A DNA stretch of 64,000 bases from the NCBI RefSeq assembly GCF_003790525.1, contig NZ_CP033635.1. One strand, given 5' to 3'. Numbering within the stretch: the stretch's first letter is position 1; every line of letters begins with the position of its first letter. Below, one piece after another: positions 1-32,235 of this stretch. The stretch is from Escherichia coli. Lineage in GTDB: Bacteria > Pseudomonadota > Gammaproteobacteria > Enterobacterales > Enterobacteriaceae. The notes under the pieces were generated by a model, which saw only the letters and a program-made list of their open reading frames with translations, ran no database searches and was not told the origin of the DNA. The translations under genes and the position numbers were made by a program.

Positions 1-257
1 TAACATCATTCATCAAAAATATTCTTATCGATGTAGAAAACATCAATGTAAATAGAATGTTTAATTACCTCCCATTCAGAATAGCAATGAGCGTCCATCA
101 TGTTTTTTGATTAGAATCGTATAATAAATGTTGCACTAAAATATTTATAACGAAGTAACAATGCGCACCTCAATACTTAAAGATTGAATGGGCTACCAAT
201 CAATGTGGATACGTATTGACGGGTAGCCAGGAGATTGAAATTACGTTCGGTCAAGAA

Positions 258-1592
258 TCAGAACATACTCACCACAAGAAATCCCAGAAGCACTGAGAAA
301 GCAATAGCCAGTACACCCGGAATAAAGAAAGCATGGTTGAACACATACTTACCAATACGGGTCGTTCCTGTGTCATCCATTTGCACCGCCCCCAGAAGGG
401 TTGGGTAAGTTGGTAACACAAATAAAGCAGACACAGCAGCAAAAGAAGCTACCAGCATGTAACTGTCATCCGGATTCGCTGCAGTAATACCCAATGCAGT
501 CACAATAGCCGGAGTGATAGCTTTGGCAGTTGCAGCCTGTGAATACAGAAGCATCGCAGCCAGGAAAAATACCACAGCCAGAAGAGCTGGATACTGGGAT
601 ACAGTAGTTCTGGCAAGCTCCTTAATTTCTCCTGAATGACCAGATACAAAAGTGTCCCCCAACCATGCCACACCCAGTACACAGATACAGGCAACCATGC
701 CTGACTTGAACACAGAGGAGTCCGCAATCTTGTTTATATCTGCTTTACAGAAAAGGGTAATGAATCCGCCAACCAGTAGCATGAGACTCATAATAGCCGC
801 ATCACGACTAACAACAACGTTATCAATCAGACCCAGCGTCGGGCTAATGGCCGAAGCGTAAAGGACCACCAGGATGACGCCAATAAGGAAAATTGCGACA
901 GATCGTCTGGCATAAGGCTTGAGCTGTTTGTTAACACTCTTTACTGGCGCGCTTACGAGTCCTTTGGAAAGACGCTCCCGGTAAACCGGATCATTGTCTA
1001 ATTTCATGTCAGAAATCAGACTGATTATAAATGCGGTAAGCATGCAACCAACGAATGTGGTAAACAACCATATCCCAAGCAATACTGGATAACTCCACCC
1101 AAAGCCTTCCAGTACGCCAGACATATAGATAACGGCAGCCGATACAGGTGATGCTGTAATTGCAATTTGAGATGATACAACCGCAATTGAGAGCGGACAT
1201 GAGGGCTTAATGTTTTGTTCTTTGGAAACTTCGACAATTACAGGGATCATTGAAAATGCAGTATGTCCCGTACCGGCAAAGATTGTCAGCACATAAGTGA
1301 CAACCGGAGCCAGGTAATTAATATATTTTGGATTTTTACGAAGAATTCGTTCAGCGACCTGAACGAGATAGTCCAGTCCTCCCGCCAGTTGCATGGCCGA
1401 AATAGCAGAAATTACCGATGCAATAATTAGAATCACATCCCAGGGGATATTACCAGGCTTCATATCCAGACAAAGCCCCAGAATCAATACCCCAATGCCA
1501 CCGGCATAACCAATACCAATCCCGCCCATACGGACACCCAAAAAGATTGCCCCCAGCAGAACCACTATCTGAAGAACAGTGATAATATCCAT
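258..1592 (-). CDS. Dcu-family anaerobic C4-dicarboxylate transporter (DcuA/DcuB-like divergent paralog)
   Basis: 444-aa polytopic membrane ORF; N-terminal block (GGIGIG..GVLILG..KPGNIP.DVI) and C-terminal blocks (LLYSQAATAKA, LPTYPTL, QMDDTGTTRIGK) match the DcuA/DcuB family as recalled; differs from K-12 DcuA so treated as a paralog. Confidence 0.85.
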   Translation of the reverse strand: MDIITVLQIVVLLGAIFLGVRMGGIGIGYAGGIGVLILGLCLDMKPGNIPWDVILIIASVISAISAMQLAGGLDYLVQVAERILRKNPKYINYLAPVVTYVLTIFAGTGHTAFSMIPVIVEVSKEQNIKPSCPLSIAVVSSQIAITASPVSAAVIYMSGVLEGFGWSYPVLLGIWLFTTFVGCMLTAFIISLISDMKLDNDPVYRERLSKGLVSAPVKSVNKQLKPYARRSVAIFLIGVILVVLYASAISPTLGLIDNVVVSRDAAIMSLMLLVGGFITLFCKADINKIADSSVFKSGMVACICVLGVAWLGDTFVSGHSGEIKELARTTVSQYPALLAVVFFLAAMLLYSQAATAKAITPAIVTALGITAANPDDSYMLVASFAAVSALFVLPTYPTLLGAVQMDDTGTTRIGKYVFNHAFFIPGVLAIAFSVLLGFLVVSMF

Positions 1593-1747
1593 GATTCTCT
1601 CCCGAATTAGTGAGACACCTTTACCCCTGAGCTCCTCTCAACAAAGGCCTTATGGAATGTATTTTTACAAACATCCGGGCAGAGGACTGATACGTTTTCA
1701 TTCGCGCCATCCCCTGCCGGATCTCCCTTCTTACAGATTCTGAACAA

Positions 1748-3148
1748 TTATTGTTCGAACTTCGGAGCAATCAGATTATCCAGATTGAATGTCTTCTCCC
1801 ATTCTTCCTGTGTGAGTAGCTTACGTTCGACAACCACTATCTGATGGAGGGATTTGCCTGTATGGTATGCTTCGTGCGCCATTTCAGAACACACCTTATA
1901 TCCCAGATGTGGCTTCAGGAGAGTCACAATACCGCAGGAATGCATTACCATCTCTGCAGTTCGATCGGAATTAGCTGTAATGCCATCAATGCATTTAGTT
2001 CGGAGTGTGTTACAGGCATTCGTCATCACCTTGAGTGAGGTGAACAGCGCAAAGGTGATGACCGGCTCCATAACGTTAAGCTCAAGCTGACCAGCAGATG
2101 CCGCCAGCATCACTGTGGTGTCCAGCCCCTGAACCAGGAAGCAAGACTGGTTTGTTACTTCCGGGATAACGGGGTTAACCTTACCAGGCATAATGGAAGA
2201 ACCCGGTTGCAATTGAGGCAGGTTAATTTCAGCCAGGCCGCAACGGGGGCCTGAAGCAAGCAGTCGAATGTCATTACAAACCTTGGTAAGCTTCACAGAG
2301 AGGCTCTTCATGGCCGAACTGAGTGCAACATATGCACCACAGTCGCTTGTGGCAGCGATGAGATCTTCACTGTTCCTGAAATTAATGCCTGTGATCTGGG
2401 CCAGATATTTCACGGCTAAAGCGGGATAATCCGGGTGAGCGGTAACACAGGTACCAATCGCAGTAGCACCAAGGTTTACAACCCGCAGGTGTTCCTGTGC
2501 ATTACGGATGACCCGAATTTCATCATTAATTGTAAAACCCCAGCCATGGAACTCCTGGCCGAGAGTCATTGGCACTGCATCCTGCAGGTGAGTACGTCCC
2601 ATCTTGAGCACTGTGCTGAACTCGTCAGCCTTTTTGTAGAATGCTCCTACGAGGTGTTCAACAGCTTCAAGCAATACATTGCTTCGCAGCAGCAATGCCA
2701 GATGTAATGCTGTCGGATATGTATCATTGGTGGACTGACCAAAATTAGCATGGTCGTTTGGCGAAACGCGTTTGTAATCCCCTTTAACGCTACCAAGTTT
2801 TTCTGCAGCAAGATTACAAATCACTTCATTGCAGTTCATATTGGTTGACGTTCCGGCTCCCCCCTGAAGCCAGTCGGTCACAAACTGTTCCCGGTACTTA
2901 CCATCAATTAATTGGTCGCAAGCCCAGATTAAAGCATCCGCAACATCAGCAGGAATTGTACCTAACTCCTTATTAGCCATCGCAGCTGCTTTTTTCACAT
3001 AACCGAAGGCAATGATGAAGAAGGGCTCCTGACTCATTGGCATTTCAGTAATATGGAAATTATCCTCACCACGAAGTGTCTGAACACCATAATAGCAATC
3101 ATCCGGAACTTCACGCTCACCAAGGAAATCGCTTTCAATACGAGACAT
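1748..3148 (-). CDS. aspartate ammonia-lyase / class II fumarase family protein (copy A)
   Basis: 466-aa ORF; MSRIESDFLGEREVPDD..YYGVQTLRG N-terminus, GGAGTSTNMN and GSSIMPGKVNPVIPE signature blocks typical of aspartase/fumarase C family; near-identical inverted copy at 30835-32235. Confidence 0.88.
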   Translation of the reverse strand: MSRIESDFLGEREVPDDCYYGVQTLRGEDNFHITEMPMSQEPFFIIAFGYVKKAAAMANKELGTIPADVADALIWACDQLIDGKYREQFVTDWLQGGAGTSTNMNCNEVICNLAAEKLGSVKGDYKRVSPNDHANFGQSTNDTYPTALHLALLLRSNVLLEAVEHLVGAFYKKADEFSTVLKMGRTHLQDAVPMTLGQEFHGWGFTINDEIRVIRNAQEHLRVVNLGATAIGTCVTAHPDYPALAVKYLAQITGINFRNSEDLIAATSDCGAYVALSSAMKSLSVKLTKVCNDIRLLASGPRCGLAEINLPQLQPGSSIMPGKVNPVIPEVTNQSCFLVQGLDTTVMLAASAGQLELNVMEPVITFALFTSLKVMTNACNTLRTKCIDGITANSDRTAEMVMHSCGIVTLLKPHLGYKVCSEMAHEAYHTGKSLHQIVVVERKLLTQEEWEKTFNLDNLIAPKFEQ

Positions 3149-4013
3149 AATTTTCTAACTCCATTTTTCGAAAACAATGTGACAATAACAAATTGTTTTC
3201 ATAAAACACTTATCCAACATTAAGAATGAATACTTATAATCACCAGATGACATAACCATTACCATCTAATGGAATATATTTAAACTAATAAGATAAACTT
3301 AAAACGTGATATCAAGCACATTTTTATAACGTTAAAATTAGTGGGTTATTTAGCAATCAAATATAACCAGTAAAAGCCCGAAATATGCAGATAACGCTGC
3401 ACTAATATGATTAAGATCAAAAAAAACAATTCCGCAATCAAACTTATTATTAATGCTGATTTTTTAAATCATGATTAAGTAGAACTATTTTATAATAGCA
3501 TCCCGGTTTGGTCACATCCTTCAGAAAAACAACCTGTTTACCACCATAGAAAATCTATATCTCTGCTAGGTTTTCCAGCGTTGTAGATATAGTCACTCAT
3601 GGTGATTCTTATTAAGATAAGAGTTTTTACACGGGAATGTTATTGCACTTCTAATTGATAAATCTTGGAATAGAGTAGAAAACGTAATGTTTCCACTCCA
3701 TCTTCCGCTTTAATGGTTTGTAATTTGAGTTAGATCATGGATTTTAACATCCATTATGATTAATTATTTTTAGATGATTTGATCACTAAATCGTCTTTCA
3801 GGGTGTAACGGCATTAATCATCACAAGCTAAAAAAACGCCATACTGTAATGGAGTCTGTATTTTATGTTCAATCATGCAAAGGCTCTTCATAATTATCAT
3901 TTCTCTCTTGGAAAAATGACAGCCTGAACATAGCATAAATTCACGTTCTTCAGAGTCAGAAGGTGTTAATAAACTGTCCCTAAAATCTGGAAAATGTTGA
4001 AGAAGGCATCTCA
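3149..4013. promoter_or_regulatory. AT-rich divergent intergenic region between aspartase-like copy A (minus) and pepT-like gene (plus); likely carries both promoters
   Basis: about 865 bp without convincing ORF, strongly AT-rich, flanked by divergently oriented start codons. Confidence 0.3.
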
Positions 4014-5270
4014 ATGGATATTGTCGAACGCTTTATCAATTATACAAAAATTAATACCACTACCTCACGAGAAAACGGCGCAAAAGGGATCATGCCTTCA
4101 TCTCCTGGTCAGATGAAACTTGCGAAATTGTTGGTGAGTGAACTTGAAGCATTGGGTATGGAGGATATTATTCTCAGAGAGAATGCTATCGTAACAGCAA
4201 CACTCCCTGCAAATACTGACGAAACAATCCCCGTCGTTTCCTTTTTTGGACATCTGGACACCAGTGCCGAACAGACAGCCGATACAAAAGCGCAACGATT
4301 ACCTTATAATGGGGGCGATCTCTGTCTGAACCCTGAACTGAATATTTATTTGCGTGAGAGTGAATTCCCGGAGCTCAAAAATTATATTGGCGATGACCTT
4401 ATAGTGACAGATGGTACCAGCCTTCTGGGGGCCGATGATAAAGCGGCGCTGGCGGCCATAATGAACGCACTTCAATTTCTGATTTCTCATCCTGAAATCA
4501 GGCATGGAGAAGTTAAAGTTGGGTTTGTGCCAGATGAAGAGCAGGGGTTACGGGGGGCCAAAGCCTTCGATGTTTCAGAGTTTGGCGCAGATTTTGGCTA
4601 CACTCTGGATTGCTGCGGTATTGGAGAATTTGTTTACGAAAACTGGAATGCGGGTGATGCAGAAATTATCTTTACCGGCCAGTCTGCACACCCTATGTCA
4701 GCGAAAGGCAAGCTTAAGAACTCTCTTTTGATGGCTCACAAATTCATTTCGATGTTGCCAGGAGGAGAAGCGCCTGAATATACAGAAGGACGCGAAGGCT
4801 ATTATTGGGTGAAACAGTTACAGGGAAACAGTGCCAGAACTGTACTAAAACTGGATATACGAGATTTCAGCGAGGAAGGATATCACGCCCGGAAGACATT
4901 TGTACGCCAGCTTGCAGAAAGTGCTTGTGCATTATGGGGAGAAGGAAGCGTGATCTGCCAACTGAGCGATCGGTACGCCAATGTCTTTAACAGTCTGCAG
5001 GGAGAGGGGCATTATCCCATCGACATTGCCCTGCGAGCTTACCAACGATGTGGTATTACTCCGACACCGGTGGCGATGCGTGGAGGATATGATGGCGCTG
5101 TTCTTTCACAAAAAGGATTACCCTGCCCGAACATTTTTACCGGCGCACATAATTTCCATTCTATCTATGAATATCTTCCAGTCCGTTCACTTCGGGCGGC
5201 AAGTGATGTGGTTATTGCCATCATTCAGGAGACATTCAATGGGTTCACCACAGGGAATCGTGAGTCATGA
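4014..5270 (+). CDS. peptidase T-like tripeptidase (M20B family metallopeptidase)
   Basis: 418-aa ORF; blocks FFGHLDTS, TDGTSLLGADDKAA, VGFVPDEE, IFTGQSAHP resemble PepT/M20 family as recalled. Confidence 0.8.
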   Translation: MDIVERFINYTKINTTTSRENGAKGIMPSSPGQMKLAKLLVSELEALGMEDIILRENAIVTATLPANTDETIPVVSFFGHLDTSAEQTADTKAQRLPYNGGDLCLNPELNIYLRESEFPELKNYIGDDLIVTDGTSLLGADDKAALAAIMNALQFLISHPEIRHGEVKVGFVPDEEQGLRGAKAFDVSEFGADFGYTLDCCGIGEFVYENWNAGDAEIIFTGQSAHPMSAKGKLKNSLLMAHKFISMLPGGEAPEYTEGREGYYWVKQLQGNSARTVLKLDIRDFSEEGYHARKTFVRQLAESACALWGEGSVICQLSDRYANVFNSLQGEGHYPIDIALRAYQRCGITPTPVAMRGGYDGAVLSQKGLPCPNIFTGAHNFHSIYEYLPVRSLRAASDVVIAIIQETFNGFTTGNRES

Positions 5271-6628
5271 TTAAAGTTGTTATCGCGCTTCTTGTTATCG
5301 TGATAGTTGCTCGCTTAATCCTGAAAGGATATCGTGCAGAACCCGTGCTTTTTATTGCCGGGCTTGCGCTGATGGTTTGTACCTGGTTTACCGGTTGGGG
5401 CACAGTGTTACCGAAGGGCGTGTCCGGTACAGGAATTAGTTTTCTTGATCCTTTCGAAGTCATGCGCAATTTATTCAGTACCCGTGCGGCTGATCTCGGT
5501 CTGATGATTATGACCCTGATGGGATTTGCGCATTACATGGACCATATCGGTGCGAATGAAGCGGTTGTCCGTGTGGTAACCCGGCCATTACGGACATTAC
5601 GTTCCCCCTATGTTCTGCTTTTTTTCTCTTATCTTTTCGCCAGTCTTCTTCAACTGGCTATCCCCTCAGCTACCGGACTTGCTGTTTTACTGATGGGAAC
5701 CATGTTTCCTATTATGCTCGGACTCGGGCTGTCAGCAGCGTCTGCCGCAGGGGTAATTGCCACCTCTCTTGGTGTGGCGTACACACCGACAGCCATTGAC
5801 GCCATACGAGGCTCTGAAGCGGTAAATATGGATGTGGTGGAGTATGTTGTCTATCATCAGGGGCCTGCTGCTCTGGCGACTGTTCTGATTGTCGGTATCA
5901 GCCACTTTTTCTGGCAGAAACACTGTGATCGTAAAGCTGGAACATTACCTCATGAAATTGGTACGACAACGGTCATAAAAGCAGGCAGTACGCCGGCTTA
6001 TTATGCTCTGCTACCTATGCTACCGATCCTGATGGCCGTTGGCTCATCGGAGATTTTTGTCACCGGAATTAATCTCAATATCATTACGATTGTTCTTATC
6101 TCAATGGCAATTTGCATGCTGATCGAATGGGTCCGTAAATGTGATCTGAAAGCTGTATGTGACGGGTTTACCCATTTCCTGAAAGGAATGGGGACAGCAT
6201 TTACCGGCGTGGTGGGCTTACTGGTGGCCGCAGGTGTGTTTGCTCATGGGATTAAAAGCATTGGCGCGATAGATCAATTAATTTTGATGGCAGAGCACGT
6301 TGGGTTACCCCCTTTTGCGATGGGCATCGTTTTTGCTCTGGTTACACTGGCTGCAGCTGTCATTATGGGATCGGGCAATGCGCCATTTCTGGCTTTTGTT
6401 GAACTGATACCACAAATCGCTGCCAGCATGGGCGTGAATGCCATATCGATGATCCTGCCTATGCAGCAGGCTTCCCATATGGGGCGTGCGATGTCTCCCG
6501 TATCTGGCGTGGTTATAGCGGTTTCCAGTGGAGCAAATATAACTCCCTTCGAAGTGGTAAAACGCACTGCTTTACCCCTGATAGTTGGTTTTGTTTTTCA
6601 CTCTGCGATTATCGGTATTTTTTATTAA
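5267..6628 (+). CDS. DcuC-family (C4-dicarboxylate anaerobic carrier-like) transporter
   Basis: 453-aa membrane ORF; similarity to DcuC as recalled (ARLILKGY.., GNAPF.AFVE.IP, PVSGVV.AV); start ATG overlaps pepT-like stop (ATGA), so translationally coupled. Confidence 0.75.
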
Positions 6629-6639
6629 CTTGTTTTAGA

Positions 6640-8000
6640 TTGTCATCCTCCACGCCCAGAAGGATGTGGATTCCTGCTAATCAGGCTATTGCCGGAATCA
6701 TTTCGGTGGGCTCCTGCTTAAACAAAAGGCCTGACTGCACCATCTCTTTACAGGCAAGTACGGCGTGCCCTGCAGCTAAAATATTACGGGTGCCGTTTAC
6801 ATCGGCGCTCGCTGCATATGTGCGCCGGGCATGGCGCGTAGCGCCGTGACTGGCGCTGTTCTTCAACTGTGGTGGCTGAAGAACGACTAAGAGGTGAAAG
6901 TCCTCCACACACCCGGTGAGGGGAAGTGTTAGCGGAAGGCAAGGGTGTTCATCGCGAGGTGAAATCTGAAGGAAGCCGGATGCAAAATGCTGGCCTGACG
7001 AACAGGAAGCGGTTAAGGCGGCGCAGCAGGGTAAGGTGGCACAAATCACCAAAGCCCGATACTCACACGGAACGCTGTGACGTAAAGCCGACAGGCATAA
7101 GCAGGAAAGTCGCGTGAATTACCCCGGGAGATCTGTCGCCCTGCCAGTGTGCTACCGGTGCCGTGAGGCGCCGGGATGGGGCGGCAGAAGTCAGCCGACG
7201 CCGTAGTAGTGCTGCAAAACCGGCAGCATGAAGGGCCGAACATGATTAACTGTGATTAGGACATCCGAACCCGATGATGATTAATGAAGCACACGCGCAG
7301 GCAACTGCGGCCAGCGGCAGAGGAGACGGACAGTATCCGTCAGGGCTGCATGATGGCGCTGAAATCAGCACGGCGGCGGGTGGGCAAACGAAAGCGGAAG
7401 TGCCGCTGACGATGGAAGCGGTGATAACGAGAGAAAACCTGATGCTGGCTTATCAGCGCGTGGTGGAAAACAAAGGTGTGTCGGAGTTGAAACCGTGGCT
7501 GAAGAAGAACTGGCGCAGCGTATGGCAGGTATTGATTGACGGAAACTACCAGCCGCGGGCAATACGCCGGATGGATATCCCGAAGCCGGATGGCGGCGTG
7601 AGAACCTTAGGCATCCCGACGGTGGTGGACAGGCTTATCCAGCAGGCGATAGCGCAGCAGTTAAGCGCCATCGTGGACACAGCTTCTGCCGCTACGCAGA
7701 CGACTGCAACATCTACGTAAGCAGCCGGAAAGCGGGCGACCATCTGCTGAAGGACATCAGGGCGTTCGTGGAGAGCAAACTGAAACAGAAGGTGAATGAG
7801 AAGAAGAGCGCGGTGGCGCGCCCGTGGGAGCGGAAGTTGTGGGCTGACAGTGACGGACCGTGCTGCTTCACCAAACGCCTTGGACGGCAGGCGGAACTTG
7901 GATCGTTACGTACTTGAAAAGTGGATCAACAAGAGGGTTCAACGAGACTGGGGAGTTATATTTCTTTCTCAAGGTCCGGCATTTATCTCTTCCACATGAA
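6640..8000 (+). mobile_element. group II intron remnant (5' RNA domains plus internally deleted reverse-transcriptase/maturase ORF); boundaries approximate
   Basis: ORF 7274-7720 has the RT domain 0-2 signature (ENLMLAYQRV..IPKPDGGVRTLGIPTVVDRLIQQAIAQQL); a downstream frame has RYADDCNIYV..KLKQKVNEKKSAVARPWERK (RT domain 5-7 and thumb); the intervening RT domains are missing and no domain V/VI was seen. Confidence 0.7.
7274..7720 (+). pseudogene. group II intron reverse transcriptase/maturase, N-terminal fragment (internally deleted, frameshifted)
   Basis: see group II intron remnant; RT motifs split between frames, indicating deletion. Confidence 0.7.
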
Positions 8001-8243
8001 ATCTCGATATAAAGTCAGACACGGATGTCCTACTGAAAGCGGGGGGAAGTATGGTGATAGAGGTCAGCGGGAACCTATCCATAAAAGTCACTCATTACAC
8101 TAAAAAATATGTGCATATTATTTGCGTGCAATTAAATTTTGCAAAATCGAATTAGCATAATTTTTTTTGATAGAAGTCAAATAAACATAATGGAAAAAGT
8201 TTAAATATTTATATTGTATAAACTTCAGACAAAAGGAGGAGTT

Positions 8244-9275
8244 ATGAATAAAATAAAAGGTATAACAGTAATGGCAGCCTTCGCATTGTGTATAGGATAT
8301 GCTCACGCTGAATCTCAAACGCCAATACGCCTTGTAATTCATGGTGGAGCTGGCACCATAACAAAAGATACTATTACACCTGAACAAGAAAAACAATACA
8401 GAGAAAAGTTAACAGATGCACTAAATGCTGGGTATGCTGTGCTTAATAGTGGAGGAAGTAGCCTTGATGCTGTTCAGCGTGCAATTAATGTTATGGAGGA
8501 CTCTCCCCTCTTCAATGCTGGAAAAGGCGCTGTCTTTACTCATGATGGCAAAAACGAACTTGATGCTGCAATTATGGATGGAAAAACCAAAATGGCCGGA
8601 GCCGTTGCAGGAGTGACGACCATAAAAAACCCTATAAACGCTGCTTATGCAGTTATGACTAAAAGCCCTCATGTATTAATGATCTCTAATGGTGCGGAAC
8701 TATTTGCAAAAGAGCAAGGCTTAGTTATGGTTGAGCCAGCATATTTCAAAACTGATTTCCGTTGGCAACAGCTACAGAACGCTTTAAAAGACGAAAAAAT
8801 AACCCTTGATCATAATGGTAAATCAGCATCTCTTTTACTCCCCCCAAAGAACTACGACTATAAATATGGAACTGTTGGAGCAGTCGCGTTGGACAAAGAT
8901 GGTAATCTGGCAGCTGGAACATCAACAGGAGGTATGACAAATAAACGTTACGGACGCGTAGGTGACTCGCCAATAATTGGAGCAGGAACCTATGCCGATA
9001 ATAATACCGTTGCTGTTTCTGCTACAGGTACTGGAGAAATGTTTATTAGAACTTCAACTGCATACAATATTGCTGCTCAGGTGAAATATAAAAATACACC
9101 ATTGAAAGAAGCAGCTCAAAATGCGCTTGATGAAGTTAAAAACATTAATGGTAGTGGTGGTGTCATTGTTCTAGATAAGAATGGTAATTATACTATGAGT
9201 TTCAATACAGAAGGGATGTATCGTGGAACTATCGGCAACGATGGTAAAGCTATCGTATCAATTTATGAACAATAG
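8244..9275 (+). CDS. isoaspartyl peptidase / L-asparaginase family Ntn-hydrolase with N-terminal signal peptide (periplasmic)
   Basis: RBS AAGGAGG 7 nt upstream of ATG 8244; signal peptide MNKIKGITVMAAFALCIGYAHA; blocks GTVGAVALD.DGNLAAGTSTGGMTNK and GTGE.FIR match IaaA/plant-type asparaginase family. Confidence 0.85.
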   Translation: MNKIKGITVMAAFALCIGYAHAESQTPIRLVIHGGAGTITKDTITPEQEKQYREKLTDALNAGYAVLNSGGSSLDAVQRAINVMEDSPLFNAGKGAVFTHDGKNELDAAIMDGKTKMAGAVAGVTTIKNPINAAYAVMTKSPHVLMISNGAELFAKEQGLVMVEPAYFKTDFRWQQLQNALKDEKITLDHNGKSASLLLPPKNYDYKYGTVGAVALDKDGNLAAGTSTGGMTNKRYGRVGDSPIIGAGTYADNNTVAVSATGTGEMFIRTSTAYNIAAQVKYKNTPLKEAAQNALDEVKNINGSGGVIVLDKNGNYTMSFNTEGMYRGTIGNDGKAIVSIYEQ

Positions 9276-9304
9276 ATAAAATATTTTATACATCGTCTTG
9301 CCCT

Positions 9305-9338
9305 TAAGGCCCATTTTAAAAGCGGGCCTTTATTTAAT
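9305..9338 (+). terminator. rho-independent terminator after isoaspartyl peptidase gene
   Basis: stem AAGGCCC/GGGCCTT followed by T-rich run. Confidence 0.6.
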
Positions 9339-9571
9339 AAATATTCTTAACGCCTCCTTATTTCACAGCTAAAAGAAGAGTAATTCTTAGACTCATTAAC
9401 CGTCTCTCTACCGAGACGCTTACCCATATCCAGCCCGTACCCTGCAGAAATACCGCGATGTATAGCGTTTCTGTGTCATGGTGAAAAGTACAGGAGGAAA
9501 TTATAAATTCTGGGAATATCCCTGGTTATAACATTTTGTAATACATTAAGTGATATCATTATTTATGATGT

Positions 9572-9605
9572 AAAAAGGGGCCTGCAATAGCCCCTGAAAA
9601 ATCAG
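9572..9605. terminator. bidirectional hairpin terminator (AGGGGC..GCCCCT flanked by A/T runs) downstream of the minus-strand small gene
   Basis: perfect 6-bp stem with A-run upstream and downstream. Confidence 0.5.
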
Positions 9606-9612
9606 AAAACCT

Positions 9613-9891
9613 TCATTTTATACCTGCAGCGCTCATTGACTGCCGCAGTGCATCCAGTCCTTGCTTACAGGCCATATCCTGACTGGCGTCAGGTAAAGCT
9701 GCAATTTGTTTTCGGGATTGTTCATATTGCTGTTTCAGCGTATTAACCTGTGCTTCTGGTGTTCCCATTTCCTTCATCTTTGCTACAAAATTATCGATTT
9801 CTTTATAATACTCTTCACATGCCGGAGTCAGTGCTGCACTGGCTGACATACTGAATAATACTGTAGTAAGTAAGACTGTAATTGTTTTCAT
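9613..9891 (-). CDS. small secreted protein of unknown function (signal peptide, two Cys)
   Basis: start at internal Met with AAGGAG RBS; MKTITVLLTTVLFSMSASA signal peptide; 92 aa. Confidence 0.6.
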   Translation of the reverse strand: MKTITVLLTTVLFSMSASAALTPACEEYYKEIDNFVAKMKEMGTPEAQVNTLKQQYEQSRKQIAALPDASQDMACKQGLDALRQSMSAAGIK

Positions 9892-10249
9892 AAATACACT
9901 CCTTTTTTGTACAAAAACACTCAACCTTCCTGAGAAGGCCATAAAAGCAGAATGTTATTGGAATATCAGCAAAACGAGTATTCCCACAGGTTTTTTCTTG
10001 GTATCAGAATTCTGGGATATAAATCCAGTAAATGATGGAGTAAGTCCGAAAGAATATGTGGTGTGATTACGGACTACCAGTAAATATTACTGATTTCATG
10101 CCATGAAAATACTCATTATAAAAAGCGCCTGTATGCTGCTTATAAAATATCAGAATCCGATGTGTCAAAATGTGATATATATTAAAAAATAAATAAGACT
10201 GACCCAATATACCAAAAGAGGATGACAGAAGTGAAGGATAACCGTATTA

Positions 10250-11344
10250 TTCTGGACCAGAAAGGAGCCTGTACATAGATTTGTGTAATTGCCTGATTTT
10301 GATATGTTCAATTCACCTTCAAATGAAGGTGAATTTATGGCCGACAAACAATTGCAGGCTCTGGCTAACGAACTGGCCAAAAATCTCAAAACTCCTGAAG
10401 ATCTCAGTCAGTTCGATCGCCTGCTCAAGAAAATCAAAGTTGAGGCTGCTCTCAACGCTGAACTGACTCACCATCTGGGACATGAAAAAAATCAACCCAA
10501 ATCGGGAACCAACTCCCGTAATGGCTATTCCACGAAAACCGTCCCACTACCGACGGGCCGATGGAATTACGTACTCCACGTGATCGTGATGGTTCCTTCG
10601 AACCACAACTGGTGAAGAAAAATAAGACCTGCATTATCGGCATGAACAACCAGATCCTGGCGCTGTATGCCAGAGGGATGACTACTCGCGAAATTACCTC
10701 AGTCTTCAAAGAAATGTACGATGCAGACGTTTCTCCGGCGCTGATATCGAAAATCACCGATGCCGTAATCGACCAGGTTGTAGAATGGCAAAACCGTCCT
10801 CTGGATGCGATTTATCCCATTGTTTATCTTGACTGTATTGTCCTGAAAGTACGGCAGGACAGCCGGGTTATCAGCAAAGCGGTGTTCCTGGCTCTGGGTA
10901 TTAACCTTGATGGTCAGAAAGAGCTGCCAGGTATGTGGCTGGCCGAAAATGAAGGTGCAAAGTTCTGGCTGAATGTACTGACGGAACTGAAAAATCGCGG
11001 CCTGAACGATATCCTTATCGCCTGCGTGGACGGCCTGAAAGGCTTCCCGGAAGCGATTAATGCCGTCTACCCGGAGACGCAGCTCCTGTTGTGCATAGTA
11101 CATATGGTACGCAACAGCCTGCGGTTAGGGCGTGGAAAGACTATAAAGCGGTAACCCGTGACCTGAAACAGGTTTACCACACAGCCACGGAAGAAGGCGC
11201 GTTGCAGGCGCTGGATGCGTTCGGGAAGGAATGGGATGCACGGTACCCGCAGATAAGTCGCAGCTGGCAGGCAAACTGGCCGAATGTTGCCACCTTCTTC
11301 GTGTACCCGGAGGCGAGCCGCAAGGTTATAATAAATAACCGTCA
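10250..11344 (+). mobile_element. IS256-family insertion sequence remnant (3' end interrupted)
   Basis: transposase ORFs 10337-11340 match IS256-family (mutator-type) transposase blocks (TREI..FKEMYDADVSP, YPIVYLDCIVLKVRQ, LIACVDGLKGFPEAI); C-terminal about 80 aa missing at junction with IS50-like element. Confidence 0.75.
10337..11340 (+). pseudogene. IS256-family transposase (frameshifted, C-terminally truncated)
   Basis: coding split over three frames (10337-10615, 10561-11154, 11091-11340). Confidence 0.75.
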
Positions 11345-12760
11345 ATACGGTGCTCCGTTAACGCTTACGTCTGTTATGGTACTTTCTGATTGTTATTCAT
11401 GGGCTAACGAGCAGTTTGGACATGCCAGTCTCGGTGATCCGCGTCGTACACGACGCCTTGTGTCACTGGCCTCTTCTCTCGCTCAGCATGCAGGTCTTTC
11501 TATCGTGAAATCATCCCAGTCCACTGCTCAGGTTGAAGGTGCGTACCGCCTGATGCGTAACCCGTCAGTGTCTCCGGAAGCCATTGCCGAAGCCGGATTT
11601 ACCGCCACTGCAAGGGCATGTGAGGCACATCCGCTGCTCCTCGCACTGGAAGACACCACCACCATTAGTTTCAGCCACAGTACGGCATTTGATGACCTAG
11701 GGAATACCACTACTAACCCGAAGACGCGCGGGCTGCTGGCTCACTCTGTCCTGATGTATGCCCCCGACAGCGCCCTGCCAGTCGGTCTTATCGAACAGCA
11801 GCGCTGGAGTCGGGCCACGGACACCTACGGTGTTAAGCACCAGCGAAAAGAACGTCCCTGTGAAGAAAAAGAAAGTTATCGCTGGCAGCAGGCTTCGGAG
11901 CGTATGGCTGAACGGCTGGGGGAGATACAGAAACGGGTAATCACTGTCTGTGGCCTGGAAGCGGATATCTGGCATTACCTGCATTATAAAGTCAGCCACG
12001 GACAGCGCTTCGTGGTGCGTGCTGCACAGAATAGCCGGCAGGAAGAAGCACCCGGCAAGCTCTTCGAACTGCCGGAAGTCCTGACAACCGCATGAAGCCA
12101 CATGCTGAATGTGATGTAAAAAGGCGGGCGCGCAGCCCGCCAGGCCCGGATGTTCACCAGTTACAGCGAAGTCGGCATAAAAAATCCCGACAACAGCGGC
12201 CAGGCGCTTCCGCTCACGTATGTCTGTTGCCGGGAGCAGGCAGAGGACGGTGCCTGCTGGCATCTGCTGACATCAGAAAAAGTGGCGAGTGCCGCCGATG
12301 CGCGACGTATCGTCAGCCATTACGAGCGACGCTGGTTGATAGAGGAATACCACAAGGCGTGGAAAAGTGGTGGTACATGTGTGGAATCGCTGCGTATGCA
12401 GACCCGGGATAACCTTGAGCGCATAGTGGTTATCAAGGCGTTTATCGCGGTACGGGTGCTGGGCCTGCGGCAGGGAGGTATCAGTGAAGAAACACAAAAT
12501 GACAGCTGTGAGAAAATACTGTTGCCGACAGAGTGGAAACTGCTGTGGGTTAAGCTGGAAGGAAAACCGCTTCCGTCACAGACGCCGACACTGAAATGGG
12601 CCTGTCTGAAACTGGCGAAACTGAGGCGATGGCATGACAGCAAACGCACAGGTCGCCCCGGTTGTGTAGTCATGTGGGATGGCTGGTTCAGACTTCAGGA
12701 TATGGTTGAGGGTTACCTGGTGATGGAGTCTCTTGATCAGGAGCTCTGATCAAGAGACAG
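11345..12760 (+). mobile_element. IS4-family (IS50/Tn5-transposase-like) element inserted into the IS256-like remnant; left boundary approximate
   Basis: transposase similar to Tn5 Tnp as recalled (LGDPRRTRRLV, LALEDTTTISFSH, RWLIEEYHKAWKSG, WHDSKRTGRPG); right end CTGTCTCTTGATCAGAGCTC (revcomp at 12741-12760) resembles IS50 inside-end sequence. Confidence 0.7.
11376..12749 (+). pseudogene. IS4-family (Tn5-like) transposase, frameshifted (11376-12095 and 12150-12749)
   Basis: two consecutive ORFs in different frames together cover a Tn5-like transposase. Confidence 0.7.
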
Positions 12761-12905
12761 CTAGTACAGTAGGGGGTACCATTATTTAATTCCTGCAGTA
12801 CCAATTAACACAGAGCATTCTGCCTCTGTGAACATATGATATCCAGACTTGACTAATTGTTATTGTGAATGTTTTTATTGCTGTTTTAGCCTCTAATCGA
12901 TGCTT

Positions 12906-13619
12906 TCAGTGTTCCAGCGCGATAGCGCAAACATGTTCAAGCTTAGAGAGTGAATGGTATAGTTCTGGTAATGTCATTTTTTTTCTAATCACGACCTTAA
13001 GGTTAACTTCTATTCTTCCCTTTTTAACATCGCGAATAGTGAACGCTTCAATAATATTTTTTTGTTGATTAATACACTCTATCAGGGCTTGTAGCCCTGA
13101 TCTTTCGTCAAGAGTAACATGAACTTTTACTTTACCCGGAAATTGATTCTTAGCTTGCAAAAAGAGCACAAAATAGCTGAGTTTTATTGCAATCATGAAC
13201 AAAGCAGTGGTAACCAAAGCATGCATATAAAACCCAGCACCACATGTAATTCCCACCCCAGCCGAAGCCCAAACGATAGCTGCAGTTGTTAGTCCAGATA
13301 TAGCATCGTCATGGCGATGAAGGATAACACCTGCGCCGAGAAAACCTACACCGCTGATAATCTGTGCTGCCAGTCGCATCGGATCGCTACGTATATTCAT
13401 CGAGATTTCAGCGTAATATTCTGCAGACTGAATCGATACAATTGTCAGAACACAACTGGCGACTGAAATAATGACGCACGTTTTAAATCCAACAGGCTTC
13501 CCTTTCGATTCTCTTTCAAGGCCAATAATGCCACCAAGGATAAACGCGACGCAAATTTTGCCCAGTGTAATAAAGAGAGATTCTTCTTCACTGAATAATA
13601 AGAAGGATAACGTATTCAT
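12906..13619 (-). CDS. MgtC/SapB family membrane protein
   Basis: 237 aa; N-terminal hydrophobic domain with GIIGLERE motif typical of MgtC family, plus soluble C-terminal domain. Confidence 0.75.
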   Translation of the reverse strand: MNTLSFLLFSEEESLFITLGKICVAFILGGIIGLERESKGKPVGFKTCVIISVASCVLTIVSIQSAEYYAEISMNIRSDPMRLAAQIISGVGFLGAGVILHRHDDAISGLTTAAIVWASAGVGITCGAGFYMHALVTTALFMIAIKLSYFVLFLQAKNQFPGKVKVHVTLDERSGLQALIECINQQKNIIEAFTIRDVKKGRIEVNLKVVIRKKMTLPELYHSLSKLEHVCAIALEH

Positions 13620-13682
13620 ATTTCCTCCGGAAAAAACTCACTCCAAACTGTGTACGAAGGTCTCCTTTTCTGCCCCATGAGG

Positions 13683-14666
13683 CTACGCGCCGTAGTTCTG
13701 GATATAGTGCTCTATCAGCGAAATAAGCCGCGGGTTATCGATGCTCTGCAGAATTGTGACCTGTGCACCTTTTGGTTCAGGGATCCCAATATTGAGGCGT
13801 AATGTGTCACGTCCATAGCAACAAGTCATTCCGCGTGTAATGCCTTCCAGAGATACATCCAGATAATCTTCAGCCGTTGTTGCAAGAGAGGGATCCAGTA
13901 ACCAGGCAATGGTTAACACATCGTGGATCCAACACCCAGGCAGATTGCGGGTTTGCATAGAGTATGTAATCCATGGTCGAATGGTTTGTGCCAAATAACG
14001 GCTAAGCCCGTTTTCTGTTTTTGCTAGACGATCCAAATCGGCGTGAAGCATTTGGGTTTGCGTTGTCACATCCATCGGGACCAGCGTGACTGGCGCACCG
14101 CTGGTGAGCACCGCATGAGCCGCCTCAGGGTCCAGACCAAAATTTGTATCTTTCAGGTAGCCTGGAACATTGAACACGCCACCCATAACGACGATATTTT
14201 TGACCGCGTGAACAATCTGCGGGTAAAGCTGCAGGGCGATGGCTACATTAGTGAGGGGGCCGGTAGCAACCAACGTTATTTCGCCTGGATTACGACAGAT
14301 GAGTTCACCTATTGCTTCAGGCGCATGGGGTTCTACCTGCTGGCACAATGCTGGAGCAGGAACATTCGACCAGAGTTGCCGTAAACCAAACTGATCGACA
14401 CCATGATCCAGTTTTTCACGCCAGGGTTGCGGATCTTCCAAGAGCGCACGCGAGGCACCACGGTAGACCGCAACAGGAATATCCAATTGTGTAATGAGAT
14501 CTCTAGCGACCGCATATCCCACGTCTACCGGCGTATTTCCGGCAACAGTGGTGATCATTTCCAGCGCGATTTGCGGTGCGGCAATGGCCAGCGCCAGCGC
14601 CAGACCGTCGTCGATATTAGCGCCGGGAATGCCGTTCCCCGGATCGCAGTCAATAATGATACGCAT
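13683..14666 (-). CDS. inosine-uridine-preferring nucleoside hydrolase family protein
   Basis: N-terminal IIIDCDPG..DDGLALALA aspartate-cluster motif of IU-nucleoside hydrolases; start chosen at MRIIIDCDPG. Confidence 0.8.
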   Translation of the reverse strand: MRIIIDCDPGNGIPGANIDDGLALALAIAAPQIALEMITTVAGNTPVDVGYAVARDLITQLDIPVAVYRGASRALLEDPQPWREKLDHGVDQFGLRQLWSNVPAPALCQQVEPHAPEAIGELICRNPGEITLVATGPLTNVAIALQLYPQIVHAVKNIVVMGGVFNVPGYLKDTNFGLDPEAAHAVLTSGAPVTLVPMDVTTQTQMLHADLDRLAKTENGLSRYLAQTIRPWITYSMQTRNLPGCWIHDVLTIAWLLDPSLATTAEDYLDVSLEGITRGMTCCYGRDTLRLNIGIPEPKGAQVTILQSIDNPRLISLIEHYIQNYGA

Positions 14667-14676
14667 CGATTCATTT

Positions 14677-15708
14677 TCACTTTTTCTCGGGTTGAACTTC
14701 ATGCCCTTGGCAGCCACACGACTCTCCTGTTCGTAAATAAAACTCAAATTCAACACGGCGAACTTCTCCATCCCAATTTTTCAGCATGTCAATTGCCGCA
14801 CGGGCCATCTTATCGACAGGTTGTCGAACGGCGGTTAAAGAAGGGACGTTATAAGCCGATTCTTGTGTTGCGTTAAAGCAGACCAGCGCAACATCTTCAG
14901 GAACGCGCAGCCCATGTTCTGCCAAAGCGCGTAAACAGCCGAGAGCCTGTTGTTCATTTGTCGCGAACAGGGCGCGTGGCAGTTGGTGCTCAAGCATGCG
15001 TTTTGTCGCCTCGTAACCGCCGGCGCGGGTATAGTTGGTCGAAAAAATCCATGAGGGATTGACCACTAACGATGAGGCTTCCAGCGCCTGCTGCCAGCCC
15101 CGGATACGATCCTGAGTATTCAGCATTTCACGCGGGCCGCAGATGATGCCGATGTCGCGGTATCCGTGATCAATAAGATGTTGTGTTACCTGCATCGCCG
15201 CCAGTTGTTCATCAACCTGGATAACGCTGACGTTAAGCCCAGGATCCACACGATCGAGCATGACGCAGGGGGTACCGCTCTCCTGAATCAAATTGATATA
15301 AGGATGGCGATCAACACTGGTGTAGATCAGCCCGTCAACCTGGCGGTGTAGCATATTATTAATGAGTTCACGTTCACGGCAGCTACTATCGCCTGCGTCG
15401 CCCAGCAGGAGTACTTTGCCATCAGCAAAGGCTTCGTGTTGCAGGGCATGAGCCATAGAGGCGATAAACGGGTTCGAGATGTCCGGAGCGACTAGCCCAT
15501 AAGTTTGCGTACTCCCTGAAGCCAGCGCACGCGCGATGCCATTGGGTCGATAACCGGTTTTCTTAATGGCCTGTAGTACACGTTGTCGGGTCGCTTCGGC
15601 AACGGGGCGCGGGCCATTATTAATAACGTAACTAACGACAGCGACGGATGTCCCTGCTTCTTTTGCCACGTCAGAACGTGTTACGCGTTGTGAATGTGAT
15701 TGAGTCAC
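14677..15708 (-). CDS. LacI-family transcriptional regulator
   Basis: N-terminal HTH (VTRSDVAKEAGTSVAVVSYVINN) and periplasmic-binding-protein-like effector domain. Confidence 0.85.
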   Translation of the reverse strand: MTQSHSQRVTRSDVAKEAGTSVAVVSYVINNGPRPVAEATRQRVLQAIKKTGYRPNGIARALASGSTQTYGLVAPDISNPFIASMAHALQHEAFADGKVLLLGDAGDSSCRERELINNMLHRQVDGLIYTSVDRHPYINLIQESGTPCVMLDRVDPGLNVSVIQVDEQLAAMQVTQHLIDHGYRDIGIICGPREMLNTQDRIRGWQQALEASSLVVNPSWIFSTNYTRAGGYEATKRMLEHQLPRALFATNEQQALGCLRALAEHGLRVPEDVALVCFNATQESAYNVPSLTAVRQPVDKMARAAIDMLKNWDGEVRRVEFEFYLRTGESCGCQGHEVQPEKK

Positions 15709-27296: not shown

Positions 27297-28196
27297 CTAG
27301 CTATTCTCTTTAATGTTATTTCGTAAAATCGTCCAAAAGTGTTCAGCCGTTTTGTTCAGCCGAGTATCCATACGATAAATATAAGCCTGAATAGGCACTG
27401 CCCATTTAGCAGGCCACGGACACACAAGTCGTTTTGTGTTCAGTTCATCCGCGATTGACCAGAGAGGGAGCCAGGCAATACCAAGTCCATTGAGTGCCAT
27501 ATTTTTTAGTAGTTCACTCATTGAAGATACCAATATTGTGTGTCCGGCTATCCCTCCCTGTTCTGCCAAATGACGATTAACCAGTCTGCCCATATAAGAA
27601 GTTGGAGTATAGTCGAGCAAAGGAGCCTGTGAATTGGTAAGATCGAAAATCGGTTTTCCCTGTTGATCAGCAGCACATACCGGATACAACTCAGATTCAA
27701 ACAGTTTCATACAACAAAATGGCGATTGCATAAACTCCTCATCTCGAAATGAAATAATAAAGTCACTCTTCCCTTCTCGTAACGTATTTACGGCCTGGAC
27801 GACATCAATAGCCTCAACATGATAGATAAAGTCTCCGCCTAAGGTGGTGAGTGAGTGCAGAAGTTTAGGTAGCATGCTGAGGGATAATGAGTGCGCAGCT
27901 GCAATCTTAATATTAGGCAAATTGAATGAATTATCCCCCCCTAACTCATTCAGATTGCATTCAAGCTGTTGCACTAAACTGCGTGTCTGGGAGTGAAAAA
28001 GCCTACCCTCTTCAGTTAATTGTAAAGGAGAGGTTGTACGATCGAACAAAACAACACCTATAGCTGACTCTAACGCTTTTATTCGTCTGCTGAATGCTGG
28101 TTGTGAAAGGTTACGATCTTTTGCTGCCTGACAGAAATTGCGACAGGCTTCCAGTGTCAGGAAATCATATAACCATTTGGTCTCTATATTTTTCAT
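27297..28196 (-). CDS. LysR-family transcriptional regulator
   Basis: 299 aa; N-terminal LysR HTH (FLTLEACRNFCQAAKDRNLSQPAFSRRIKALE) and substrate-binding domain; divergent from racemase gene. Confidence 0.85.
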   Translation of the reverse strand: MKNIETKWLYDFLTLEACRNFCQAAKDRNLSQPAFSRRIKALESAIGVVLFDRTTSPLQLTEEGRLFHSQTRSLVQQLECNLNELGGDNSFNLPNIKIAAAHSLSLSMLPKLLHSLTTLGGDFIYHVEAIDVVQAVNTLREGKSDFIISFRDEEFMQSPFCCMKLFESELYPVCAADQQGKPIFDLTNSQAPLLDYTPTSYMGRLVNRHLAEQGGIAGHTILVSSMSELLKNMALNGLGIAWLPLWSIADELNTKRLVCPWPAKWAVPIQAYIYRMDTRLNKTAEHFWTILRNNIKENS

Positions 28197-30834: not shown

Positions 30835-32235
30835 ATGTCTCGTATTGAAAGCGATTTCCTTGGTGAGCGTGAAATTCCGGATGATTGCTATTATGGTGTT
30901 CAGACACTTCGTGGAAAAGATAATTTCCATATCACTGAAATGCCAATGAGTCAGGAGCCTTTCTTCATCATTGCCTTCGGTTATGTGAAAAAAGCAGCTG
31001 CGATGGCTAATAAGGAGTTAGGTACAATTCCTGCTGATGTTGCGGATGCTTTAATCTGGGCTTGCGACCAATTAATTGATGGTAAGTACCGGGAACAGTT
31101 TGTGACCGACTGGCTTCAGGGGGGAGCCGGAACGTCAACCAATATGAACTGCAATGAAGTGATTTGTAATCTTGCTGCAGAAAAACTTGGTAGCGTTAAA
31201 GGGGATTACAAACGCGTTTCGCCAAACGACCATGCTAATTTTGGTCAGTCCACCAATGATACATATCCGACAGCATTACATCTGGCATTGCTGCTGCGAA
31301 GCAATGTATTGCTTGAAGCTGTTGAACACCTCGTAGGAGCATTCTACAAAAAGGCTGACGAGTTCAGCACAGTGCTCAAGATGGGACGTACTCACCTGCA
31401 GGATGCAGTGCCAATGACTCTCGGCCAGGAGTTCCATGGCTGGGGTTTTACAATTAATGATGAAATTCGGGTCATCCGTAATGCACAGGAACACCTGCGG
31501 GTTGTAAACCTTGGTGCTACTGCGATTGGTACCTGTGTTACCGCTCACCCGGATTATCCCGCTTTAGCCGTGAAATATCTGGCCCAGATCACAGGCATTA
31601 ATTTCAGGAACAGTGAAGATCTCATCGCTGCCACAAGCGACTGTGGTGCATATGTTGCACTCAGTTCGGCCATGAAGAGCCTCTCTGTGAAGCTTACCAA
31701 GGTTTGTAATGACATTCGACTGCTTGCTTCAGGCCCCCGTTGCGGCCTGGCTGAAATTAACCTGCCTCAATTGCAACCGGGTTCTTCCATTATGCCTGGT
31801 AAGGTTAACCCCGTTATCCCGGAAGTAACAAACCAGTCTTGCTTCCTGGTTCAGGGGCTGGACACCACAGTGATGCTGGCGGCATCTGCTGGTCAGCTTG
31901 AGCTTAACGTTATGGAGCCGGTCATCACCTTTGCGCTGTTCACCTCACTCAAGGTGATGACGAATGCCTGTAACACACTCCGAACTAAATGCATTGATGG
32001 CATTACAGCTAATTCCGATCGAACTGCAGAGATGGTAATGCATTCCTGCGGTATTGTGACTCTCCTGAAGCCACATCTGGGATATAAGGTGTGTTCTGAA
32101 ATGGCGCACGAAGCATACCATACAGGCAAATCCCTCCATCAGATAGTGGTTGTCGAACGTAAGCTACTCACACAGGAAGAATGGGAGAAGACATTCAATC
32201 TGGATAATCTGATTGCTCCGAAGTTCGAACAATAA
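30835..32235 (+). CDS. aspartate ammonia-lyase / class II fumarase family protein (copy B)
   Basis: 466 aa, differs from copy A at about 2 residues (V14I, E28K); about 50 bp of upstream sequence is also shared. Confidence 0.88.
   Translation: MSRIESDFLGEREIPDDCYYGVQTLRGKDNFHITEMPMSQEPFFIIAFGYVKKAAAMANKELGTIPADVADALIWACDQLIDGKYREQFVTDWLQGGAGTSTNMNCNEVICNLAAEKLGSVKGDYKRVSPNDHANFGQSTNDTYPTALHLALLLRSNVLLEAVEHLVGAFYKKADEFSTVLKMGRTHLQDAVPMTLGQEFHGWGFTINDEIRVIRNAQEHLRVVNLGATAIGTCVTAHPDYPALAVKYLAQITGINFRNSEDLIAATSDCGAYVALSSAMKSLSVKLTKVCNDIRLLASGPRCGLAEINLPQLQPGSSIMPGKVNPVIPEVTNQSCFLVQGLDTTVMLAASAGQLELNVMEPVITFALFTSLKVMTNACNTLRTKCIDGITANSDRTAEMVMHSCGIVTLLKPHLGYKVCSEMAHEAYHTGKSLHQIVVVERKLLTQEEWEKTFNLDNLIAPKFEQ

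Follow-up and report, generated by a model that had tools for sequence, protein, structure and literature searches.

This report concerns a 64,000-nucleotide stretch of Escherichia coli DNA (contig NZ_CP033635.1, hereafter the window), whose positions 258-9891 hold three adjoining modules: an aspA-dcu gene pair, a pepT-dcuC gene pair, and an asparaginase gene accompanied by a small gene of family DUF5339. Judging from the sequences, we think it likely that this block is a mobile mosaic which gives some E. coli lineages additional capacity to turn asparagine and aspartate into fumarate and ammonium; aspartate freed from peptides possibly feeds that capacity as well. Within the block, pepT-dcuC is, by comparison of loci and proteins, an ancient operon, conserved without exception, which marks off a DcuC clade and a PepT subfamily of their own. 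A sequence-only reading of the window had proposed an aspartate catabolic island here. The five reading frames on which it relied were all found in an open reading frame (ORF) check, and the NCBIfam profile searches that it had named as a check bore out its family assignments. The block was not described in the literature that we searched (E. coli aspartate island, cobU island); RefSeq annotation of these genes already exists, and all the proteins fall in established families.

The aspartase of the first module scored 680 against the aspartase subfamily model NF008909 (cutoff 510) and only 460 against the fumC/fumarase model, and it is 54% identical to K-12 AspA. Its signature motifs GGAGTS (96), STND (139) and THLQDA (186) and the SS-loop GSSIMPGKVN (316) are intact, and its homologues carry PF00206 and PF10415 (Lyase_1 and FumaraseC_C). 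The Dcu carrier encoded with it is full-length, scored 608 bits against TIGR00770 (cutoff 331) and is 55% identical to K-12 DcuA. The two genes lie on one strand, aspA first, separated by a 155-bp spacer, and this order is common to K-12 aspA-dcuA and to Sutterellaceae-type contigs, the latter agreeing with the island in spacing and gene lengths too.

Outside E. coli, the closest relatives of the aspartase belong to Sutterellaceae, which are strictly anaerobic gut bacteria (Duodenibacillus, 86-88%; Sutterella, 77-79%), and gut-metagenome proteins are up to 89% identical to it. Two Sutterellaceae-type contigs (L096 and L098) carry aspA (466 amino acids) followed by dcu (444-445 amino acids); their Dcu proteins are 82-83% identical to the island Dcu, and the pair adjoins fumarate-reductase subunit genes. 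By these comparisons the ancestry of aspA-dcu is Sutterellaceae-like, that is, betaproteobacterial. The sampled Sutterellaceae were rejected as the direct donor. Their nucleotide identity of 70-75%, and a G+C content of 56-61% as compared to 46-47% in the island, mark the sampled genomes as relatives of a donor which is itself unsampled. The aspartase gene occurs twice in the window, within an inverted repeat (Table 1) whose copies share 99.4% nucleotide identity (9 mismatches in self-BLAST), with a ratio of nonsynonymous to synonymous substitution rates (dN/dS) of 0.15. Because the aspartase genes are so similar while the Dcu genes beside them are only 44% identical to each other, the sequences suggest a recent event, either duplication or gene conversion, between two modules that are not otherwise related.

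The PepT-like protein of the second module scored 555 against NF009920 (cutoff 293) and passed the PepT equivalog model TIGR01882 (364 vs 286), and it is 38% identical to K-12 PepT. The di-metal ligands and catalytic Glu of K-12 PepT (His78, Asp140, Glu173, Glu174, Asp196 and His379) are all kept, as H80, D141, E175, E176, D199 and H382. Its best solved relatives are the PepT structures 3ife, 1fno and 1vix, with 340 bits against the Bacillus PepT structure 3ife and 295 bits against the enterobacterial 1fno. The adjoining carrier scored 380 against the DcuC family model TIGR00771 (cutoff 187), is 44% identical to K-12 DcuC, and falls below both DcuC equivalog models (NF007937, 441 vs 513; NF007317, 327 vs 623). 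PF03606 was found in all of its homologues. The structure search returned no solved structure for the carrier. The stop codon of pepT and the start codon of dcuC do overlap, as had been noticed from the sequence, by the four nucleotides ATGA.

The sequence-only reading had regarded the coupling of a peptidase to a DcuC-type carrier as unusual. The coupling is real, but it is not an oddity of this island, since the cassette is conserved in at least 14 genera. In a survey of one genome per species, which yielded 79 dcuC-family loci, a PepT-like gene lay directly upstream in 42 of the 42 loci whose DcuC is at least 45% identical to the island protein. These loci come from 14 genera, namely Citrobacter, Edwardsiella, Providencia, Proteus, Morganella, Budvicia, Pragia, Aeromonas, Actinobacillus, Enterovibrio, Photobacterium, Psychromonas, Vibrio and alphaproteobacterial metagenome-assembled genomes. 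Canonical dcuC genes (at most 46% identity) had no upstream PepT-like gene at any of 37 loci, and no M20 peptidase was found there even at E = 1e-3. The stop/start junction of the cassette is an ATGA overlap in 28 of the 41 scored loci and lies between -4 and +18 nt in 40 of them; at the remaining locus, pepT is cut short by a premature stop. Some hosts show decay of the cassette: the pepT frame of Providencia alcalifaciens BIGb0506 (L033 2751-3281) contains a premature stop, and on a Salmonella Concord contig (L014 7509-11362) an IS200/IS605 element occupies the pepT position and dcuC is left alone.

Both cassette genes are under strong long-term purifying selection, with dN of 0.07-0.08 and saturated dS in the comparison with Citrobacter. 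The nearest relatives of both proteins are found in that genus (87-89% amino acid and about 77% nucleotide identity). Citrobacter was rejected as the direct donor of pepT-dcuC on account of the nucleotide identity of only about 77% and because homology ends exactly at the borders of the coding sequences. The PepT-linked DcuC and a canonical dcuC occur together in several genomes, for instance of Citrobacter (L017/L066), Budvicia (L028/L059) and Aeromonas (L036/L091), which argues that they are functionally distinct paralogues. Endozoicomonas has a reversed arrangement, in which the gene of a canonical-type PepT (51% identity to K-12 PepT) directly follows that of a DcuC-type carrier. This independent adjacency supports a functional rather than a merely historical link between peptidase and carrier. 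Clustering of the flanking ORFs of the 42 loci gave nothing common to more than two genera and no regulator, and literature searches did not find the pepT-dcuC pair described as a unit.

On a metagenomic contig (L013 7073-8425), a gene for a CRP/FNR-family (cNMP-binding) regulator lies divergently upstream of pepT-dcuC; the DcuC-like protein of this contig is 88% identical to the island carrier, and the regulator is not conserved in other genera.

Genetic data are available for one member of the clade. The Edwardsiella piscicida orthologue of the carrier, ACY83635.1 (ETAE_0790, DcuC1), is 81% identical to the island protein. In defined amino-acid medium, deletion of ETAE_0790 abolished the growth stimulation by L-aspartate and left that by malate and fumarate intact (PMC10654080). 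The deletion mutant also survived H2O2 less well and proliferated less in macrophages and in fish (PMC10654080). In the supplementary proteomics of that study, made with aerobic cultures, peptidase T (ETAE_0789) increased 2.03-fold after H2O2 (P = 0.002), and the ETAE_0790 protein was detected only after H2O2 (PMC10654080). These values fit co-expression of the two genes. The paper deals with the carrier by itself and does not take up its linkage to the peptidase (PMC10654080).

The third module encodes an asparaginase homologue whose gene most likely starts at the ATG at 8244, which stands 6 nt past an AAGGAGG box and opens a predicted Sec signal peptide, MNKIKGITVMAAFALCIGYAHA|ESQ. A start at the TTG at 8214 was rejected. 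The RefSeq start at 8271 (WP_001439114.1, 334 amino acids) was also rejected, because with it a signal peptide that is otherwise canonical would lose its charged n-region. Gene callers reported an identical 343-residue product elsewhere (P0255), and the secreted nature proposed for the protein holds after the start codon is corrected. The protein is 52% identical to K-12 IaaA and has an N-terminal extension of about 25 residues relative to EcAIII. Its Thr nucleophile lies in GTVGAVALD, the beta-subunit alignment starting at TVGAVALD, and all six EcAIII positions T179, T197, R207, D210, T230 and G231 are kept. The closest relatives are 343-344 residues long and come from Citrobacter braakii (85%) and Proteus (77-79%); for one of them, from Proteus vulgaris, the source gives the name exported L-asparaginase. 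The asparaginase gene of Citrobacter does not adjoin pepT-dcuC but stands alone. The DUF5339 gene, which has a terminator-like hairpin beside it at 9595-9576, always accompanies the asparaginase gene in E. coli.

The genes had been taken as one co-regulated unit. They are instead a mosaic of separately acquired modules split by intron and insertion sequence (IS) debris, and the differing ancestries of the modules indicate that the island was put together from at least three sources. Mobile-element debris at 6681-8155 separates pepT-dcuC from the asparaginase gene. It includes group II intron ribozyme domains at 6948-7117 and 7152-7236 (Rfam RF02001, 140 bits; RF01998, 72 bits) and a reverse transcriptase of which only the N-terminal 148 codons are left. 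An Rfam scan of positions 1-12000 matched these intron domains only, and no riboswitch or small RNA was found. Copies of the truncated intron that are about 95% identical are present on E. fergusonii plasmids.

In E. coli, the modules travel together. The aspA-dcu, pepT-dcuC and asparaginase-DUF5339 modules are each present in about 221-223 of 5426 complete E. coli genomes (about 4%), and nearly all copies are at least 99% identical to the window; the equal numbers and this identity argue that the modules are inherited as one block. Human, poultry, dog and river-water isolates are among the carrier strains. A conjugative IncFIB/IncI plasmid has the genes in the same order (ArgH-like, ansB, dcu, aspA, pepT, dcuC, asparaginase). 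The chromosome of strain SMS-3-5 (NC_010498.1) and those of many other strains are 100% identical to positions 1-10000 of the window, and the full window matches SMS-3-5 apart from a few indels and one IS3 element. The chromosomal site of the block is tRNA-Asn/cobU-yeeW. The region belongs to a mosaic island of about 80 kb, bordered by tRNA-Asn/ldtA/cobUST and by yeeW/tmaR/yeeA and rich in IS fragments and pseudogenes.

The aspartate theme proposed for the left end of the window was upheld, and it is strengthened by ansB-like and ArgH-like genes outside the window and by the Edwardsiella carrier genetics. Directly to the left of the window are genes for an AnsB-type asparaginase II, an orphan dcuR without DcuS and a GntR/FCD regulator, together with two divergent Dcu-like carriers and an adjoining ArgH-type lyase (L001 11426-19770, SMS-3-5). 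The lyase scored 615 bits, well over the argH cutoff, and together the ArgH-like enzyme and the Dcu carriers may serve to free fumarate from a different N-substituted aspartate. About 12-13 of the roughly 28 intact genes in the stretch belong to aspartate, asparagine, fumarate or C4-dicarboxylate families: six Dcu/DcuC carriers, two aspartases, two asparaginases, the racemase described below, the ArgH-like lyase and DcuR. With such families accounting for roughly 0.3% of the genes on a K-12 list, a crude Poisson estimate gives P ~1e-25, and so the clustering is not explicable by chance.

Table 1. Features of the window (positions in nucleotides; scores are given against model cutoffs)
Feature	Position	Strand	Basis
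Dcu-family (DcuA/DcuB type) C4-dicarboxylate/L-aspartate carrier, 444 aa (amino acids), second gene of aspA-dcu	258..1592	-	ORF and TIGR00770
Aspartate ammonia-lyase (aspartase) paralogue, 466 aa	1748..3148	-	NF008909 and motifs
1451-bp repeat, aspartase gene and 50 bp upstream; inverted copy at 30785-32235	1748..3198		self-BLAST
AT-rich divergent intergenic region aspA/pepT, 865 bp	3149..4013		sequence
PepT-type (M20B) tripeptidase paralogue, 418 aa, no signal peptide	4014..5270	+	NF009920, TIGR01882
DcuC-family carrier, PepT-linked clade, 453 aa	5267..6628	+	TIGR00771
TnpB/InsQ gene fragment (pseudogene)	6681..6818	-	RefSeq annotation of identical SMS-3-5 sequence
Truncated group II intron, including N-terminal reverse-transcriptase/maturase ORF fragment 7274-7720	6948..7720	+	Rfam, ORF
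Candidate FNR-like box TTGATAGAAGTCAA, one mismatch, about 70 nt upstream of asparaginase start	8167..8180	+	box scan
Secreted plant-type asparaginase/isoaspartyl (beta-aspartyl) peptidase precursor, 343 aa; signal peptide 8244-8309	8244..9275	+	PF01112
Small DUF5339 protein, predicted signal peptide, function unassigned	9613..9891	-	Pfam PF17274, E = 1e-22
LysR-family regulator (HypT-like), divergent from racemase gene	27297..28196	-	NF007488, 382 vs 301
Asp/Glu-racemase-family enzyme, 239 aa	28536..29255	+	TIGR00035, 194 vs 93
Second Dcu-family carrier, 432 aa	29314..30612	+	NF006927, 588 vs 369
Second aspartase copy, protein 99.6% identical to first	30835..32235	+	sequence comparison

A second module with a LysR regulator, a racemase, a Dcu carrier and an aspartase had been reported at 27.3-32.2 kb, and it exists. 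Its Dcu carrier also scored 500 against TIGR00770 (cutoff 331) and is 48% identical to K-12 DcuA. The aspartase copy of this module is intact in the window and is broken by the IS3 element in SMS-3-5. Use of D-aspartate had been suggested for the module. This remains plausible; the racemase also passes the cutoff of the cysteate-racemase (CuyB) equivalog NF052483 (250 vs 190). No CuyA-type sulfo-lyase is encoded nearby and the neighbours are a Dcu carrier and an aspartase, which make D-aspartate a likelier substrate than D/L-cysteate. The LysR protein passes the equivalog cutoff of HypT, the hypochlorite-responsive regulator, and bears the RefSeq name hypT. Because of its gene context, it is probably a HypT paralogue with a different effector.

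Other accessory cargo occupies the window at about 12900-26000 and 36000-61000. It comprises an MgtC/nucleoside hydrolase/LacI/MFS module, a second dgoRKAD galactonate operon, a kinase/amidotransferase/DMT/phosphotriesterase-like cluster, a dynamin-like/GTPase/patatin cluster and CP4-44-type genes (yeeS, cbeA/cbtA). The aspartate genes thus form one of several themes in an island that is large and composite. Outside the window on its left (L001 9994-10587), the island has fragments with the annotations precolibactin peptidase ClbP and thioesterase, which suggests remnants of a colibactin-type island at the tRNA-Asn-linked site.

How the block might work can be outlined from established knowledge of the AnsB/DcuA/AspA/Frd pathway, from which we infer the substrates, the direction of transport, the regulation and the link to fumarate respiration. 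L-Aspartate is reportedly key for the fumarate respiration and the nitrogen supply of Enterobacteriaceae in the gut. In the periplasm, where its signal peptide should place it, the plant-type asparaginase/beta-aspartyl peptidase would free L-aspartate from asparagine and beta-aspartyl peptides, and the AnsB-like enzyme encoded left of the window would release L-aspartate in the same compartment. Dcu-type carriers would then take up L-aspartate in exchange for C4-dicarboxylates, and the Sutterellaceae-type aspartase would convert it to fumarate and NH4+, the former passing to the core fumarate reductase and the latter to nitrogen assimilation. The pepT-dcuC pair would act as an independent, translationally coupled unit. 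By analogy with Edwardsiella, its carrier most likely moves L-aspartate or C4-dicarboxylates, and the co-produced cytoplasmic tripeptidase would free amino acids from imported tripeptides.

Several points weigh against reading the block as an additional route from asparagine and aspartate to fumarate and ammonium. The aspartase falls narrowly below the strict AspA equivalog TIGR00839 (645 vs 681), and the asparaginase falls below the IaaA equivalog NF007589 (346 vs 567). The roles of the E. coli island genes are predictions from sequence, and the Edwardsiella evidence comes from growth rather than from measured transport. The near-clonal identity among E. coli carriers leaves no power to show selection within E. 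coli. Outside E. coli, flank clustering and tblastn with the other island proteins never placed the cassette next to aspartate genes, so its presence in the island could be hitch-hiking. The regulatory scans add to these points. A link of the cassette to anaerobic growth had been suggested, but no conserved FNR box was found in the 350 bp upstream of pepT-dcuC at 39 orthologous loci. An FNR/CRP-like box with one mismatch lies at 3407-3420 (ATGATTAAGATCAA) in the aspA/pepT intergenic region, and another precedes the asparaginase gene (Table 1). The window holds 4 one-mismatch FNR boxes vs 3.9 expected by chance, and single boxes are therefore no evidence alone. A generic promoter and terminator scan gave background level only.

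Three other explanations of the locus deserve consideration, and the most serious of them concerns the cassette. The pair may be an uptake-and-hydrolysis system in which the carrier imports small, perhaps acidic (Asp/Glu), tripeptides and the co-translated tripeptidase cleaves them. The sequence-only reading had suggested import or export of Asp-containing peptides, and this is the strong version of that suggestion; nothing in our results indicates peptide transport by the carrier. We regard this explanation as unlikely, though by no means negligible. The strict co-inheritance and translational coupling of the pair in 14 genera, with no other conserved gene or dedicated regulator, are what such a system would look like, and the reversed PepT/DcuC-type adjacency that arose independently in Endozoicomonas points the same way. 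That the PepT-linked clade is distinct from characterised DcuC and coexists with canonical dcuC argues for a different job. However, our literature searches gave no DcuC-family member that carries peptides, and we know of none that has been shown to do so; the sole experimental datum for the clade is a phenotype with free L-aspartate, and no solved structure was found in which the binding site could be inspected. The broader proposal that the PepT-linked DcuC clade, from a family otherwise known for C4-dicarboxylates only, represents a new kind of peptide utilisation, and that E. coli recruited the cassette together with the Sutterellaceae aspartase for peptide-bound aspartate in the gut, seems to us rather doubtful. 

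Alternatively, the block might serve nitrogen acquisition or stress metabolism more than anaerobic fumarate respiration, aspartate and asparagine being taken up and deaminated for ammonium while the carbon skeleton either leaves by exchange or is converted to pyruvate. Such a use would resemble the nitrogen shuttle formed by DcuA and AspA in K-12, and also the antioxidant role proposed for Edwardsiella (PMC10654080). The lack of a conserved FNR box above the cassette and the chance-level number of boxes in the window would fit it, as would the aerobic induction of ETAE_0789 and ETAE_0790 by H2O2 and the lower survival of oxidative stress on loss of the carrier (PMC10654080). On the other hand, the Sutterellaceae-type aspA-dcu pair adjoins fumarate-reductase genes, and in K-12 aspA and dcuC are, like pepT, FNR-bound operons (PMC3688515). 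The roles are not mutually exclusive; as an account in which nitrogen or stress predominates, we consider this improbable. It is more improbable still that the grouping has no functional meaning and that cargo simply piled up at an integration hot spot, some or all of it as silent passengers. The differing ancestries of the modules, the intron, IS and TnpB debris between them, the pseudogenes throughout the wider island and the broken aspartase copy of SMS-3-5 would be expected of such a pile. Yet the thematic enrichment is extreme, the reading frames at 258-9891 are all intact with complete active sites, and about 220 genomes, of human, poultry, dog and water origin, have kept the block whole, as have plasmids.

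Some E. coli lineages have stacked redundant foreign copies of the aspartate pathway, with one module of Sutterellaceae type and the set also plasmid-borne. The block is therefore a candidate for an island of colonisation fitness, and it clearly exemplifies gene transfer across bacterial classes that is driven by niche. What is new is the convergent gathering of aspartate/fumarate genes from different donors on one mobile element, the recognition of pepT-dcuC as an operon whose clade can be tied to existing Edwardsiella genetics, and the corrected start codon and predicted secreted location of the asparaginase. The cassette carrier has a virulence-related phenotype in a fish pathogen, and its peptidase partner was overlooked. 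The cassette thus opens a route to function for an uncharacterised PepT subfamily and DcuC clade.

The system most similar to the block is the pathway of E. coli and Salmonella in which AnsB, DcuA/DcuB, aspA-dcuA and FrdABCD lead from asparagine through aspartate to fumarate and ammonium. The island shares with it the families of enzymes and carriers and the order of aspA then dcu, and a periplasmic asparaginase is encoded next door. It differs in that its AspA and Dcu are distant paralogues (54-55% identical) of betaproteobacterial ancestry, duplicated and mobile, and in that it adds a secreted plant-type asparaginase and pepT-dcuC, neither of which is canonical. The asparaginase shares with EcAIII/IaaA the Ntn-hydrolase family (PF01112), 52% identity, the autoproteolytic Thr and the aspartate-binding residues. 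However, the island protein has a Sec-type signal peptide, which EcAIII lacks according to the alignment, and K-12 iaaA is linked to gsiABCD while the island gene is not.

For the cassette, the direct orthologue is Edwardsiella ETAE_0789-ETAE_0790, with identical gene order and ATGA overlap; that pair is chromosomal, between dinB and pepD, and has no other aspartate genes nearby. Like PepT of Salmonella and E. coli, the island peptidase is an M20B enzyme which scores above the equivalog cutoff and keeps the metal ligands. Unlike K-12 PepT, to which its identity is low, it is always encoded with a DcuC-type carrier; K-12 pepT is a solitary gene flanked by potA and roxA. The nearest precedent for a peptidase-carrier pair is abgA-abgB-abgT, in which M20-family hydrolases are encoded with an ion-transporter-superfamily carrier for p-aminobenzoyl-glutamate. 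In both cases a cytoplasmic M20 metallohydrolase is encoded with a secondary carrier, the island pair being known by linkage alone. AbgT is not a DcuC protein and AbgA/B belong to another M20 subfamily than PepT, so the resemblance is in logic only. Overall, the block is a modest variation on a known pathway.

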